In this document: positions 16,035 to 21,135 of the stretch, piece by piece
Layout: every line of letters begins with the position of its first letter
How positions within the stretch are numbered: position 1 is the first letter of the stretch
Assembly: GCA_963708295.1 (NCBI GenBank)
Contig: CAVPSJ010000004.1
Coordinates: 480,001 to 544,000, forward strand
Length of the DNA stretch: 64,000 nt
Source of the DNA: an uncultured delta proteobacterium
Lineage (GTDB): Bacteria > Desulfobacterota > BSN033 > UBA1163
Direction: 5' to 3'
The notes under the pieces: generated by a model
What the model was told of the DNA's origin: nothing
Databases searched by the model: none
What the model saw: only the letters and a program-made list of their open reading frames with translations
Made by a program: the position numbers and the translations under genes

Positions 16035-16070
16035 TTGACAGAGTAAACATATTGTATTATATTGTATTGT
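16035..16070 (+). promoter_or_regulatory. sigma70 promoter overlapped by a 10-bp direct repeat
   Basis: TTGACA(16035-40)-17 bp-TATATT(16058-63); ATATTGTATT twice at 16049-16068. Confidence 0.7.
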
Positions 16071-16093: not shown

Positions 16094-16276
16094 TTGCCAG
16101 AGAAGAAGATCGCCCGTACGATCTACATTAAAGACGTGCAATTGGAGGCTTTGAAGAGACTATCCGAGAAGACCAAAGTCCCCCAGTCTGTCTATGTCAG
16201 GGAGGCCTTGGATATGCTATTGGAGAAATATTCGGAACAGTTGAAATTTGAATTCAAAGAATATTTCAAAGGATAA
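16094..16276 (+). CDS. Ribbon-helix-helix protein, CdbA/CdbB-like
   Basis: KKIARTIYI...QLEALKRLSEKTKVPQSVYVREALDMLLEKY resembles myxobacterial CdbA as recalled (KK-x-x-T-IYI...LK-x-L...TKVP...Y-x-R...D-x-x-LEKY). GGAGG RBS, TTG start. Confidence 0.8.
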   Translation: MPEKKIARTIYIKDVQLEALKRLSEKTKVPQSVYVREALDMLLEKYSEQLKFEFKEYFKG

Positions 16277-16318
16277 TTCTCTTAAGGCATCTCAAGGCAT
16301 GGAAGGAATGATAACAGA

Positions 16319-17056
16319 GTGGATTGTTTCCGATTGGCTTATTTGAAATCGCCAGGGTTAGAAAAGGGCTTTGAAGAGTCTTTCCCGTCCGATACCAACG
16401 GGAAAGTTGCGAGTTCCTCCATCCCTCCTTCGGGAGATCAGATCCCCGTGACCCTCTCTTCTGAAGCCGTTCTGAGGCAGGCCAAGATTGATCTGAAGCA
16501 CCCCGATCGGCAGGTGAGAATCTTGGCGACAAGATATTATTTGGAAAAATCCTATCCCTCCATCCCTCTGTCTCTCCTCCAGGAAATTTTGTCTGACCGA
16601 GATCCAGATGTCAGATCTCAAGCCCTTCGTTCTCTTATTAAATTTCGGAGCCCCATCGTCCCCCCTTTGCTGCGAAAATATCTTAAGGATAGCGACCCGT
16701 GGGTCAGGATCGCCGCCCTCCGAGGAATGTTTCAATTTCAGGAGAAGATCGACCTGAACATCTTTCTGCGATTCTTGAGCGATGACTCTACCTGGGTGAG
16801 GCGGAAGGTGGCCACCTTATTGGGATGGGCTCAAATAGAGGGTGCCCTACCGATCCTGAAGGAGTTGTCAAGGGATGCCCATTCCATGGTGAGAAGAGCA
16901 GCCCTTTTTTCCCTGGCAACCCTTTATCCCGACGAGAGTGAGAATCTCTTGATGGAGGCCATGACCGATCCAGACCCGGAACTTCGAAAGTGGGCCAAAA
17001 CGACGTTAGAGAAAACATTGACCAGGCCGTCTAAAAGGAAGGACGGCTTCTCTTAA
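16319..17056 (+). CDS. HEAT-repeat protein, putative minimal PomY
   Basis: About 6 L-x-D-x-D-x-x-VR-x-x-A HEAT units; it occupies the pomY position upstream of pomZ. The 5' end is uncertain (a possible frameshifted start at ~16298-16310). Confidence 0.65.
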   Translation: MDCFRLAYLKSPGLEKGFEESFPSDTNGKVASSSIPPSGDQIPVTLSSEAVLRQAKIDLKHPDRQVRILATRYYLEKSYPSIPLSLLQEILSDRDPDVRSQALRSLIKFRSPIVPPLLRKYLKDSDPWVRIAALRGMFQFQEKIDLNIFLRFLSDDSTWVRRKVATLLGWAQIEGALPILKELSRDAHSMVRRAALFSLATLYPDESENLLMEAMTDPDPELRKWAKTTLEKTLTRPSKRKDGFS

Positions 17057-17079
17057 GAACCGAGGTTGAGACGAAAAAA

Positions 17080-18096
17080 GTGCCGATGACAGCCCAATCG
17101 CTGCCTCTGATTCAAAAAGCAGAGATCTTGAGAGATACCGTCTACTCGCCGACGGCTTTTGCCAACCTCCTTGGGATTTCGAAACATGAGCTCCTTGAGA
17201 AAGAGTCGGAAGGAATCCTCCCTGCTGCAAAGAGGAATTTGAATCGGGACCGCTACTATAAGCCGGAAGATGTCACCCGATATAGAAACGCCCTGGGGCT
17301 TGACTCTCCCATCAAGTCCATACGAAAGCAGCTCTTTCTCAACTTCAAGGGGGGAACAGGGAAGAGCACCATATCCGCCTCCTACGGTTTTCGCCTTGCC
17401 CAGATGGGAGTTCGAACACTGTTGATCGATTTGGATCCACAAGGCCACCTCACCCAATGCCTGGGCCTCAATAGTCAACAATTTTCAAAAACCCTGTTCA
17501 GTGCCTTGATCGAGAAGGAAGAGATTGAAAAAATTATCGTCAAAACAGACCTCCCCACATTGGATGTCATCCCCTCGAACCTCAACCTCTCACCCGTGGA
17601 ACTCTCGCTCTTCTCCATGAATTCGAGAGAGTTTCGATTGAGGAGGCTTATCTCTTCTCTGGAGAAGAACTACGAGCTGATTGTGATGGACGCCTCCCCC
17701 AGCATTGGACTCTTAAACCTGAATGCGATCCTTGCCTCGAATGATCTCATCATTCCCGTCCTAGCCGATTTCCTTTCCTATCACGGTCTCAAGATCCTTT
17801 TCGAGACCCTCTCCACGATCGAAGAGGACTTCTCTTTTGTCTTTGAGAATATTTTCATCTTCCTGAATCGTTACAATGAATCCCATCGAATCTGCAAACG
17901 TTCGAAGAAGGCCCTGGAAACCCACTATGAGCAGTATCTCCTCAACACGGTGATCCGGCAGGATACAAAGATTGCTGAGGCTACGAGTCAAGGGACCCCG
18001 ATTTTTCTTTTCGCTCAATCGTCAAAGGGGGCGGTGGATATCCAGAGCCTGATTGAGGAAATATTAGCTTTGAAAGGAGTAGATCATGTCGGATGA
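17080..18096 (+). CDS. pomZ: ParA/MinD-family ATPase with N-terminal MerR-like HTH, PomZ-like
   Basis: RKQLFLNFKGGTGK, LIDLDPQGH-x-T-x-CLG, GLLNLNA, PVLADFLSYHGLKILFET, IRQDTK, SSKGA-x-DIQ. These subfamily-specific blocks match M. xanthus PomZ as recalled. Confidence 0.85.
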   Translation: MPMTAQSLPLIQKAEILRDTVYSPTAFANLLGISKHELLEKESEGILPAAKRNLNRDRYYKPEDVTRYRNALGLDSPIKSIRKQLFLNFKGGTGKSTISASYGFRLAQMGVRTLLIDLDPQGHLTQCLGLNSQQFSKTLFSALIEKEEIEKIIVKTDLPTLDVIPSNLNLSPVELSLFSMNSREFRLRRLISSLEKNYELIVMDASPSIGLLNLNAILASNDLIIPVLADFLSYHGLKILFETLSTIEEDFSFVFENIFIFLNRYNESHRICKRSKKALETHYEQYLLNTVIRQDTKIAEATSQGTPIFLFAQSSKGAVDIQSLIEEILALKGVDHVG

Positions 18097-18418
18097 ATTT
18101 ACCAACAACGTCGCACAAAAATTTCCCAACACGCTAAGTAAAGAGCCTATCGAAAGGCCATGGGATGTTTCGGAACCCAAGTCTATCTCCCCTCTGAGGA
18201 AGCCTATGGAAGAGTCCAAAAAGAATGATTTAGCAGAGCGCGTCGATATGCTCTATTCTGAGCTTCGTTCCTCGTTGACGGTTCGATCCGCCCTGGAATT
18301 CGACCTAAAGAAGGCCAACCGCATTCTGGAAGAAGTCAACCGGGTTAAAGCGGAAGTGGAAAAGGTCGTAGAAATGTTAAGGGTGATGGATGAATACATG
18401 AAAGAACGGATGAAGTAA
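18086..18418 (+). CDS. Short PomX-like coiled-coil paralog
   Basis: Shares F-x-x-NVAQK-x-P and ALE-x-DL blocks with the 18493 ORF. AGGAG RBS; overlaps the end of pomZ. Confidence 0.7.
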   Translation: MSDEFTNNVAQKFPNTLSKEPIERPWDVSEPKSISPLRKPMEESKKNDLAERVDMLYSELRSSLTVRSALEFDLKKANRILEEVNRVKAEVEKVVEMLRVMDEYMKERMK

Positions 18419-18492
18419 TCTCCTTCCCGATCTTTCTCAAGGGCTGAAAATGGAAAGAGGAGGAAGGGCCAAGCGGTTGAGGAGGAAAACGG

Positions 18493-19329
18493 ATGAAGCC
18501 AAGAATTCAGACGGCCACGGCGGATGGTTTCGAAACGAACGTCGCCCAAAAGATGCCGAAGATTAGAAAGCTGGAAGAACCCCATACCCTCATCCTGGAG
18601 CAGGACTTCCCGCGGCAGGAAAAAGAAGGCGATCAAACACCCATCGATGATCAAACGTTCTTCCCGGAAATGAGTCTTTCGGAAAAACAGGCAGAGAGAA
18701 AGGCGATTTTTGAGTCTTCTCAGAAAGGGATCGCATCGGAATCGAGTCTGGACGTCCTGAAATTGATCGAAGACCTTCACGGTCAACTTCTCGCATCGGC
18801 TCAGACCAAGAAGGCCCTGGAGATGGATCTGGCTTCCTACAAGAAGAGTATCCAACAATTAAGCCAGGACAATCAGGAATTGCGCCGCCAGTGGGAGGCC
18901 CTGAGCAAAGAAGATCAGAAACTCAAAGAAATCCAGTCCGAATCGATCTATCTCCAAGAAGAACACACGGATGCCTTAGAGAGAATCAAAGAGTTTCAGC
19001 AGGAAATGAGAGAGATGAAGAAAGCCTTGACCCGGGTCACCCAAGAAAGAGAGGAAGCCTTGGATCGAATTCGTGAACTGGAATCCCAGGTCGAGCAGAC
19101 TGAGGTCATGAAGATCAAGGGCAAACTAAAAGAGAGAGAGGCCTCCCTTTTCTCCGAGGAGAACCGGGAGCTTCAGTCCAAGCTGGAAGAGGCCATCGCT
19201 CGCAATACGGACCTGGAGAAGAAGTATGAAGCCTTGAAGAAGTCCTTTGGTGAAGTCAGAGAATCGCTGACCTTTTTGAGGGATTCCTGTAAGGCAAATT
19301 ATTACAACCTTTCCGAAAGCGCCGATTAA
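18493..19329 (+). CDS. pomX: PomX-like coiled-coil protein with N-terminal ParA-activating peptide
   Basis: GFETNVAQKMPKIRKL resembles the PomX N-peptide (AFEQNVSRAKPRLRL as recalled), followed by an acidic linker and a ~190-aa coiled coil. Confidence 0.72.
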   Translation: MKPRIQTATADGFETNVAQKMPKIRKLEEPHTLILEQDFPRQEKEGDQTPIDDQTFFPEMSLSEKQAERKAIFESSQKGIASESSLDVLKLIEDLHGQLLASAQTKKALEMDLASYKKSIQQLSQDNQELRRQWEALSKEDQKLKEIQSESIYLQEEHTDALERIKEFQQEMREMKKALTRVTQEREEALDRIRELESQVEQTEVMKIKGKLKEREASLFSEENRELQSKLEEAIARNTDLEKKYEALKKSFGEVRESLTFLRDSCKANYYNLSESAD

Positions 19330-19446: not shown

Positions 19447-21135
19447 TTGAAAATTCGATTAATTGATCCGGCGTACCAACATCCTTATATTAGCCACTCA
19501 CAAAAGGTGATTAAGGACATCTGGTTTGCTCGCCTCACACTGACCGCGCTGGCTGCCCTCACCCCCTCCGAGATCGAAGTGAAGATCACCGATGAGAATG
19601 TGGACCCAATTGACTTTGAAGAGGATGTGGATCTCGTCGGCCTGACCGGAATGGTCATGCATGCTCCACGGGCCTATCAAATTGCGCAGAAGTTTCGTCA
19701 AAGGGGAATCCCGGTCGTCATGGGTGGGCCTCACGCCTCAAGCCTTCCCCTCGAAGCCAAGGCACATGTGGATGCGGTGGTGATCGGTGAGGCGGAGGAT
19801 GTCTGGAAAGGGTTAATTGAAGATTACAAGAAGGGATGCCTCAAACCCTTTTATCGGAACGATCACTTCTGCTCGATGAAAAGACTTCCCTTTCCGAGGC
19901 TTGATCTCCTTCGGAAAGATGCTTATATGACGGTCAACTGCGTCCAGACAACCCGCGGCTGCCCTCATCAATGCGATTTTTGTCATGTCACCCATTTCTT
20001 CGGAAAGACCTACCGATGTCGACCCGTGGAAGAGGTGATCGAGGAGGTGGAACGTTTAGACGGTGAGTTTGTTGTCTTCATCGACGACAATATCGCCGGG
20101 AACCGCCAATATGCGAGGGAACTCTTCACGCAATTAAAGCCCCTCAGGAAAAAATGGGCCAGCCAGGCCAGTATGACGCTGACCCGAGACCCCGAACTTC
20201 TGAAACTCGCTGCGGAGAGCGGATGCGTTTCTCTGTTCATGGGGGTAGAGTCTCTGTCTGAGGAAAACTTGAAGGAGGTGAATAAAACCTTTAATCGAGT
20301 TTCCCAATTTGACGAGGCCATGAAGGCCGTTCACGACCACGACATCATGATCCTGGCCGGGTTCATTTTTGGGCTGGATCATGATGATGAAGGGGTCTTC
20401 GAAAGAACGCTCCGGTTCTGTGAACGGAACCGAATTGAACTGCCCACTTTCTTCATTCTTACCCCCTTGCCCGGGACAGCCTTATTTCAAAGGATGGAGT
20501 CCGAGGGCAGGCTCCTGCACAAGGATTGGGGGCAATATAACGGAGCCACCGTCGTTTTCAAGCCCAGGTTGATGACCGAGGAAACACTCCAGCGCGGATT
20601 TAATTGGGCATGCAAGGAGGGCTATTCCTGGAACTCCATCTTTAAGAGGGTTTTCCACCCCCAACAACGATTCTTTACAAGGGTGGTTTCAAATATTGCC
20701 TATCGAAGTATCGCACGAAGAACACCGGAGGGTTATCTTCCAAGCCTTTCACGGATTTTGCAGAAGATGAACGATACTCTCCCTCTCGAGAATACCCGGG
20801 ATTTGATTCAACAAGTCGGCGAGAAGATTACAGAGAAGAAACTTCTGATTGGTCAGAAAGCAGCCGATACGCTGAGACTCTATTCTATTTATAACGAGCG
20901 GCTTAAGACGCTTTTCGTCAGACTGGAAGGGTCCATGGATCGGGAAGCGGCGAAGGAACTGGTGAAAAGGCTCAAAGGGGTATTAAACGTGAAGATCCAA
21001 AAAGTCATCCTTGACTTTAAGGATGTGGGAGCATTTTCCTCGGAGGCAATTGCCCTGCTTTCCAGAAAGGGCCTTCTTCAAACAGAAGAAGGGAAACTTT
21101 GGATCGCTGTGAATCTACCGGGTATCCGTGATTAA
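19447..21135 (+). CDS. B12-binding radical SAM protein with C-terminal STAS-like domain
   Basis: VVMGGPHAS, TTRGCPHQCDFC (CxxxCxxC), FIDDN; C-terminal VRLEGSMD...VILDFKDVGAFSSEAIALL. Confidence 0.85.
   Translation: MKIRLIDPAYQHPYISHSQKVIKDIWFARLTLTALAALTPSEIEVKITDENVDPIDFEEDVDLVGLTGMVMHAPRAYQIAQKFRQRGIPVVMGGPHASSLPLEAKAHVDAVVIGEAEDVWKGLIEDYKKGCLKPFYRNDHFCSMKRLPFPRLDLLRKDAYMTVNCVQTTRGCPHQCDFCHVTHFFGKTYRCRPVEEVIEEVERLDGEFVVFIDDNIAGNRQYARELFTQLKPLRKKWASQASMTLTRDPELLKLAAESGCVSLFMGVESLSEENLKEVNKTFNRVSQFDEAMKAVHDHDIMILAGFIFGLDHDDEGVFERTLRFCERNRIELPTFFILTPLPGTALFQRMESEGRLLHKDWGQYNGATVVFKPRLMTEETLQRGFNWACKEGYSWNSIFKRVFHPQQRFFTRVVSNIAYRSIARRTPEGYLPSLSRILQKMNDTLPLENTRDLIQQVGEKITEKKLLIGQKAADTLRLYSIYNERLKTLFVRLEGSMDREAAKELVKRLKGVLNVKIQKVILDFKDVGAFSSEAIALLSRKGLLQTEEGKLWIAVNLPGIRD

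Follow-up and report, generated by a model that had tools for sequence, protein, structure and literature searches.

A HEAT–ParA–coiled-coil gene module in an uncultured delta proteobacterium and its probable relationship to the myxobacterial PomXYZ system

The window analysed in the present study is a 64-kb stretch of a 1.17-Mb contig (C4) of an uncultured delta proteobacterium, a sediment-type relative of sulfate reducers (source genome G000, 91% complete), and it contains an operon encoding a ribbon–helix–helix (RHH) protein, a HEAT-repeat protein, a ParA-type ATPase with a helix–turn–helix (HTH) domain, a short coiled-coil protein (cc1), and a long coiled-coil protein (cc2). We propose, with a probability of about 0.6, that this operon represents a ParA-type self-positioning module that is chromosomal, streamlined, and conserved by vertical inheritance, and that shares descent with the PomY–PomZ–PomX system of Myxococcus xanthus. 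Common descent of the HEAT–ParA–coiled-coil triad with PomYZX, taken by itself, is likely, and positioning of the division site by the module, argued by analogy with M. xanthus, has slightly less than an even chance. The original prediction for this DNA, a Pom-like system with remodelled parts outside Myxococcota, thus survives in outline, though the orthology that it implied for the PomY and PomX candidates fails in reciprocal sequence tests.

In the portions of the literature available, PomXYZ is conserved in myxobacteria and co-occurs in Cystobacterineae, the orthologue searches having been made on myxobacterial genomes only (PMC7993993; 10.1101/2025.12.01.691545), and the titles and abstracts of the PomZ literature, supplements not being covered, describe no Pom system outside Myxococcota. 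A related triad outside myxobacteria would give the Pom system an evolutionary history and, as a naturally minimal version, would help to show which parts of PomY are truly needed. It would also be a candidate for the mechanism that places the division site in a phylum with no MinC in 275 of the 301 sampled genomes.

Kinship of the ParA ATPase with PomZ

The ATPase gene (17080..18096, + strand) encodes 338 aa with a Pfam AAA_31 match of 5.4e-45, a Walker A motif KGGTGKS (K90, K95), Asp119, and an N-terminal MerR-like winged HTH at approximately aa 13–72, of which aa 22–67 match Pfam MerR_1 weakly (2.2e-4, at the cut-off). The equivalents of G62, K66, D90, and K268 of PomZ, which mark the deviant Walker A, the catalytic Asp, and the DNA-binding Lys, are all present as G91, K95, D119, and K297 at a constant offset of +29, and from residue 62 to residue 275 of PomZ the two proteins align free of indels. 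The M. xanthus pom locus was taken from strain AM003 (locus L079), whose PomZ is a 319-aa ParA (L079:3078-4037) carrying 25/25 of the published contact residues. When PomZ was searched against G000, the window ParA was the best match (47% identity over 308 aa, 4.7e-91), followed by Soj at 3.3e-39, and when the window ParA was searched against M. xanthus, PomZ was the best match (1.6e-92), followed by a match of 6.6e-37. Identity between the window ParA and PomZ was 47–49%, compared with about 30% for Soj. Reciprocal best matches were obtained for PomZ, but not for PomX or PomY.

PomZ-type proteins also came out on top in a search of a library of 1.84 billion proteins, the best 3 of the 150 listed representatives being 49–50% identical to the window ParA. 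Two of these three, P0122 and P0123, carry 19–20 of the 25 residues of the PomZ fingerprint, and all but two of the 80 genome loci retrieved with the alignment of P0123, P0122, and P0136 are labelled as of Myxococcota type. PomZ orthologues were present in 89 of 201 sampled Myxococcota genomes, a count that includes one unpublished genome. According to the available part of preprint 10.1101/2025.12.01.691545, from the main text of which our list of 25 PomZ contact residues was taken, the residues contacting the N-terminal peptide (NPEP) of PomX and the alpha5 helix of PomY are conserved in PomZ but not in ParA/MinD. The window ParA is identical at 14/25 of them, whereas the Soj and a second ParA of G000 are identical at 6/25 each. 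In the pocket for the ATPase-activating protein (AAP) peptides, the window ParA is identical to PomZ at 10/21 residues, most of the others being conservative replacements (F/I, F/Y, L/I, V/I), compared with 3/21 for Soj. The hydrophobic residues of the pocket and the Lys that binds DNA (K268 in PomZ) are common to PomZ and the window ATPase, and they are invariant in 11/11 rows of the window lineage.

Trees were built from the ATPase core only. In the FastTree analysis of 157 rows, which left out representatives shorter than 240 aa as well as 11 rows with no Walker A match, the window lineage, PomZ, and 13 representatives grouped with a support of 92. For IQ-TREE, 58 rows were chosen: 11 of the lineage, 10 of Myxococcota, 28 representatives of the FastTree neighbourhood and 8 Soj-like ones, and the genome's own Soj. 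A 49-row clade supported at 100/100 lay on a branch of 0.99 away from the Soj-type ParAs, and within it the window lineage (97/90) and the PomZ clade (97/93) formed separate arms of a polytomy. The tree holding the window lineage and PomZ together had a log-likelihood 2.49 above that of the free tree and was not rejected by the approximately unbiased (AU) test (p 0.615). The ATPase is thus PomZ-like, but it is not demonstrated as the sister of PomZ because the two arms lie in an unresolved polytomy; it shares the 100/100 clade with PomZ while standing outside the myxobacterial PomZ clade. The sequence blocks described in the original prediction as specific to PomZ are indeed present in both the window ATPase and M. 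xanthus PomZ, though they also occur in the unlabelled relatives P0124–P0137 and so belong to the wider subfamily. Taken together, the searches, residue comparisons, and trees argue strongly for kinship between the ATPase and PomZ.

The MerR-like HTH is longer than that of PomZ, as had been noticed from the DNA: most PomZ sequences lack 16 residues of the winged HTH that is complete in the window lineage. In the AlphaFold model of the window ParA (pLDDT 90.3), the winged HTH is packed against the ATPase. A basal Myxococcota metagenome-assembled genome (MAG; L098:6493-9942) retains the full-length HTH on its PomZ and also contains a PomX-like start MKRGFEENIPKVRPRVRLG and a 502-aa open reading frame (ORF) in the PomY position.

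HEAT and coiled-coil partners compared with PomY and PomX

The gene upstream of the ATPase gene (16319..17056, + strand) encodes the HEAT-repeat protein of 245 aa in the PomY position (Pfam HEAT_2, 2.7e-33). Its predicted model consists of disordered residues 1–45 followed by 12 helices (six repeats) and nothing further, the C-terminus lying approximately 10 residues beyond the last HEAT helix, and the longest orthologue has 264 aa. PomY likewise has a HEAT domain of approximately six repeats. The proteins encoded upstream of pomZ, however, have roughly 480–830 aa, and M. xanthus PomY (MXAN_0634) is a 724-aa ORF with HEAT repeats at L079, compared with 218–264 aa for the HEAT proteins of the present lineage. 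In PomY, the N-terminal coiled coil comprises residues 5–106, and the AAP activity is assigned, in the part of the preprint available, to C-terminal residues 496–682 with the alpha5 helix and the gD domain (10.1101/2025.12.01.691545). The small size of the candidate and its lack of a long disordered region agree with what had been predicted, but the accompanying statement that the disordered region is needed for PomY condensates does not hold, since the accessible text of PMC10307791 reports that condensates form in vitro with the coiled coil alone and do not form when it is missing, and assigns this role to the coiled coil, not to the disordered region; the candidate has neither.

The HEAT profile aligned with the PomY HEAT domain at an hhalign probability of 98.4% (E 8.9e-15, 190 columns). 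The hidden Markov model (HMM) of PomY found the window HEAT gene as its best match in G000 (1.8e-15; next 1.7e-6), a genome with at least 6 ORFs containing HEAT_2 repeats, and hhalign to PomY gave 96.4% for the window gene compared with at most 73% for the other 5. In the searches from PomY into G000, this gene was thus either the sole match or the top one. At the sequence level, the relation of the HEAT protein to PomY is weak, and it is suggested mainly by synteny. The HEAT proteins of family f1, to which the window belongs, have a conserved start M-x-D-R-F-R-L-x-Y-L-K-S (FRLxYLKS; window 16319-16360, and L013–L018) before the disordered linker, and those of families f8 and f43 lack this start and end instead in a Trp-rich helix (W..WW). 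Either element could be a docking peptide for the conserved alpha5-type pocket of the ATPase.

The last gene of the operon encodes cc2 (18493..19329, + strand; 278 aa), in the PomX position, with sub-threshold coiled-coil families as its only Pfam matches. In both cc2 and PomX, a linker joins an N-terminal peptide to a C-terminal coiled coil. In cc2, the peptide lies at aa 9–26 (TADGFETNVAQKMPKIRK), followed by an acidic, Pro-containing linker of approximately 60 aa and a coiled coil of approximately 190 aa, whereas the longer linker of PomX is rich in Ala and Pro. M. xanthus PomX at L079 has 404 aa and starts with MKKAFEQNVSRAKPRLRL, the general myxobacterial start being MKKAF[DE]xNVSRAKPR and the NPEP being MKKAFxxNVSRAKPRLRL with Lys13 and Arg15. 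The cc2 orthologues of families f8 and f43 start with MKDGFDRSVAERMPK or MSNGFDRSVARKMPT. Counted from Met1, the cc2 and PomX peptides share F5, D/E6, N/S8, V9, S/A10, P14, and K/R15. A BLOSUM-averaged peptide matrix, made solely from 36 distinct myxobacterial PomX N-termini, ranked cc2 first among 13,342 ORF N-termini of G000 and cc1 84th; under the same null, the cc2 orthologues of G209, G007, and G043, aligned from Met1, would rank first, third, and sixth. Furthermore, the coiled coil of cc2 aligned colinearly, though weakly, with that of the PomX profile (hhalign probability 53%, E 1.4e-4). The peptide and the architecture point, with moderate strength, to a relation between cc2 and PomX.

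The short coiled-coil gene (18086..18418, + strand; 110 aa), likewise with only sub-threshold coiled-coil families in Pfam, encodes an N-terminal peptide MSDEFTNNVAQKFPN, an RPWDV motif, and a short coiled coil. With an hhalign probability of 89% (E 2.1e-6) against cc2, cc1 is by sequence a truncated paralogue of cc2. It was also considered as a stand-in for the coiled coil of PomY and was rejected (hhalign 0.7%). An RPW[DN]V motif follows the N-terminal peptide both in cc1 (aa 23–30, window 18152-18175) and in the cc2 protein of L020 in family f43 (aa 21–28), and it is absent from the cc2 proteins of family f1. The prediction of two PomX-like genes holds for the window, but the second of them is confined to family f1 and is missing in one of seven f1 loci.

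Conservation, proposed mechanism, and competing explanations

Fourteen of the 301 sampled genomes of the phylum, G000 included, carry an orthologue of the window ParA (E < 1e-90 and identity of at least 56%), and below this set the next-best ParA matches fall to 35–37% identity. The carriers comprise nine of the ten genomes of family f1 (G000 included), one each of f8 and f4, and three of f43. Flanks were compared at all other carriers except G186, G274, and G003, which leaves 10 of 13; L013–L018 are the f1 loci, and L019–L022 belong to carriers from other families. The HEAT, ParA, and cc2 genes occur in the same order in 10/10 of these loci, in three families and down to 56% ParA identity, with orthologue lengths of 218–264 aa for HEAT and 238–276 aa for cc2, indicating that the arrangement does not result from chance. 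The RHH gene was detected by tblastn in L013–L018 but not in L019–L022, and is thus restricted to family f1. The cc1 gene is likewise restricted to this family, being present in six of seven f1 loci with the window counted, and missing in L016 and L019–L022. In addition to these two f1 genes, which have no counterpart in PomXYZ, two f43 loci have an extra coiled-coil gene of 77–80 aa overlapping the end of cc2 (L020:6813-7055, L022:3883-4116).

From the gene content, the conservation of the triad, the kinship and pocket of the ATPase, and the resemblance of the peptides, we infer the binding steps, ATPase stimulation, nucleoid localisation, and cargo in the following scenario. The PomZ-like ATPase may bind ATP, dimerise, and coat the nucleoid, as its intact Walker A motif, Asp119, and the K268-equivalent Lys suggest. 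The C-terminal coiled coil of cc2 may drive self-assembly of this protein into a scaffold. ATP hydrolysis may be stimulated by the conserved N-terminal peptide of cc2, docked in the PomZ-type cleft that the ATPase dimer presents. Through this docking, the scaffold would be tethered to the nucleoid, and the flux of the ATPase would carry it over the nucleoid to a resting position at mid-nucleoid. The HEAT protein on the scaffold may serve as a cargo adaptor, the cargo most likely being FtsZ or the divisome, as in Myxococcus, with no PomY-type condensate involved. In family f1, cc1 may supply a second activating peptide, and the RHH protein would probably regulate the operon.

A more specific version of this scenario, which we regard as doubtful, would place the module near the ancestral form as a minimal, condensate-free Pom system, in which a PomZ with a complete winged HTH would move a PomX-like scaffold and a HEAT-only partner of the scaffold would directly contact FtsZ. 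The myxobacterial coiled coil, disordered region, and second activator helix, along with the trimming of the HTH, would have come later, L098 with its full HTH and Gly4 peptide would be an intermediate, and activation in family f1 would be spread over up to three N-terminal peptides, those of cc2, cc1, and the HEAT protein (FRLxYLKS). If this is true, Pom-type positive marking of the division site would be a wider solution among Min-less former Deltaproteobacteria and not a myxobacterial oddity.

Several results weigh against a Pom-like module that positions division. In the ATPase, the charged positions 248, 256, 271, and 275 (PomZ numbering) at the pocket rim differ in the window lineage, and three acidic pocket residues of PomZ are replaced by K/Q/Q. 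In the IQ-TREE analysis, unlabelled lineages (P0124–P0131, P0137, and others) share the polytomy, and no sister relation between the window lineage and PomZ is resolved. The HEAT protein lacks the coiled coil, long intrinsically disordered region, alpha5 helix, and gD globular domain of PomY, and in the reverse search of M. xanthus, PomY ranked second with the single sequence and third with the profile, below other HEAT proteins. For the PomX candidate, the coiled-coil hhalign value is just 53%, and coiled coils align easily. PomX gave no tblastn match in G000, cc2 had no match in M. xanthus at E <= 0.1, the PomX HMM had no match in G000 at E <= 100, and the cc2 HMM found in M. xanthus a single match elsewhere (E 4.5). 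Neither cc1 nor cc2 was among the 1,086 matches of the PomX-peptide HMM in a six-frame hmmsearch of G000, and the cc2-peptide HMM found one unrelated match in M. xanthus (E 2.7). In addition, the position of PomX Lys13, which the available part of PMC7993993 describes as essential for AAP activity, is occupied by Met or Phe in the cc2 peptides. The PomX-like peptide that had been predicted in the last gene therefore finds support in the matrix ranking but not in the peptide HMMs or at Lys13. As to division itself, no link was found between the module and FtsZ. MinC and a true MinD, to which the original prediction had drawn attention, were not found in G000, and all 14 carriers lack MinC; however, MinC is missing from 275 of the 301 phylum genomes, and its absence from the carriers is uninformative because only 26/301 have it.

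The likeness to PomY and PomX might instead be convergent, with only the ATPase related to PomZ and the HEAT and coiled-coil neighbours being analogous recruits. The failure of the reciprocal sequence tests for both candidates and of the peptide HMMs would be expected in that case, and both HEAT repeats and coiled coils are widespread protein modules. G000, however, has just about six ORFs with HEAT_2 repeats, so that a HEAT gene directly upstream and a coiled-coil gene starting with F-[DE]-x-[NS]-V-[SA]-x3-P-[KR] directly downstream are unlikely to have been placed in the same order twice, and this order of HEAT, ATPase, and peptide-bearing coiled coil is found in both phyla. The PomY profile also favours the window HEAT gene over others by nine orders of E-value. 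Convergence is thus improbable.

The same machinery, a nucleoid-bound PomZ-like ATPase with a coiled-coil/HEAT scaffold, could also carry another cargo, such as a storage granule, a receptor array, or another large assembly. We consider this unlikely, since PomZ, the characterised protein nearest to the ATPase, positions the Z-ring and no candidate cargo genes were found to accompany the triad in all three families at the loci compared, which fits a self-contained mark as in Myxococcus. It would nevertheless account for a HEAT protein without every PomY part that papers tie to FtsZ recruitment and condensates, and for the absence of a division gene adjoining the operon, and the wider ParA clade does include different partners, such as a small membrane-anchored protein with an HTH-ParA in L023 and L024. 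Very improbable is a type Ia-style DNA partition system, in which the HTH-ParA would segregate a replicon, the RHH protein would bind a centromere, and the coiled coils would be adaptors. As in P1 ParA and Vibrio cholerae ParA2, a winged HTH is fused to the ParA core, the full window model aligning in Foldseek over 357–369 columns with ParA2 (TMq 0.76) and P1 ParA (TMq 0.73), and an RHH gene and a tandem repeat lie upstream. The best NCBIfam match of the ATPase, moreover, is plasmid RepA (9.7e-31, below the cut-off), no protein of the operon having a match above it. The identity to these ParAs is only 17–18%, however, and the partners of the window ATPase are HEAT and coiled-coil proteins. As had been noticed, no parB or parS is nearby: no ParB family match was found on contig C4, nor a parS-like site with <=3 mismatches in the 64-kb window. 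The RHH gene occurs in one family only whereas the triad is wider, and the locus lies amid housekeeping genes on a 1.17-Mb contig. A canonical parAB pair is located elsewhere in G000, the ParB matches of this genome being solely on contig C17, beside a Soj-type ParA. Chromosomal Soj/ParA proteins share the ATPase fold (TMt 0.92) and the deviant Walker A with the window ATPase, but at approximately 30% identity they lie beyond the 0.99-long 100/100 branch, and G000 has its own Soj–ParB pair on C17.

Locus layout and additional observations

The five ORFs are all present on the + strand and, in agreement with the predicted tight packing, are separated by intergenic gaps of 42, 23, and 74 nt, the ParA and cc1 reading frames overlapping by 11 nt. 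The first gene (16094..16276, + strand) encodes the RHH protein of 60 aa (Pfam PF12651 RHH_3, 1.2e-16), likely an operon regulator. Just upstream, consensus scans identified a promoter-like site TTGACA-17-TATATT (11/12 matches; 16035..16068, + strand), overlapped by a tandem ATATTGTATT x2 (10-mer), a candidate operator for the RHH protein. The flanking genes encode housekeeping functions (a transglycosylase, two metallo-beta-lactamase (MBL) hydrolases, CspA, S21, an RNA-recognition motif (RRM) protein, and oxidoreductases), and none of the neighbouring window genes directly beside the operon is a division gene. A gene for a B12-binding radical SAM protein with a C-terminal STAS domain (19447-21135) comes after cc2 on the same strand in the window and in L013–L015.

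Relatives of the ParA at 84–94% identity are very numerous in metagenome bins, the named ones being from Thermodesulfobacteriota. The f43 relatives are labelled as Desulfomonilia or Deltaproteobacteria MAGs and have generic protein names only; the database names of these proteins are 'AAA family ATPase', 'ParA family protein', and 'chromosome partitioning protein'. A partial protein, P0301, is 92% identical to the Desulfomonilia-type ParA and carries the label Methanotrichaceae archaeon, which is probably a binning error. An ESM Atlas search with cc2 returned the Thermodesulfobacteriota clusters of cc2 itself and otherwise nothing but generic coiled coils of eukaryotes, and the cc2 profile aligned with the single PomX-like protein of L098 at an hhalign probability of 2.8%.

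Two loci outside the orthologue set (L023:4830-6414, L024:4567-5963) contain an HTH-ParA with 35–37% identity and no HEAT gene. The ParA gene, the frame of which is broken by a TAG in L024, is followed by a gene for a 133–136-aa protein that is basic at its N-terminus and ends in a hydrophobic tail, and these loci appear to represent a different system within the same ParA clade.

On contig C17 of G000, the family match of the parB gene beside soj (G000:C17:427284-427800) falls into two parts separated by a single in-frame TGA, a pattern that a split gene, a frameshift, or an error of assembly could produce. The second ParA-type ATPase of the genome (G000:C17:250343-251480, a 378-aa frame) has a C-terminal extension that we take to resemble the glycogen-binding CBM48/AMPK-beta domain; if so, this would suggest that it is tied to a polysaccharide granule.

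Metagenome DNA contigs from wetland, sediment, and soil contain relatives of the module. In one metatranscriptome, contigs covered 23 of 30 bins, and one spanned the RHH–HEAT junction; such contigs are no proof of transcription, and they give a weak hint that the operon is transcribed.

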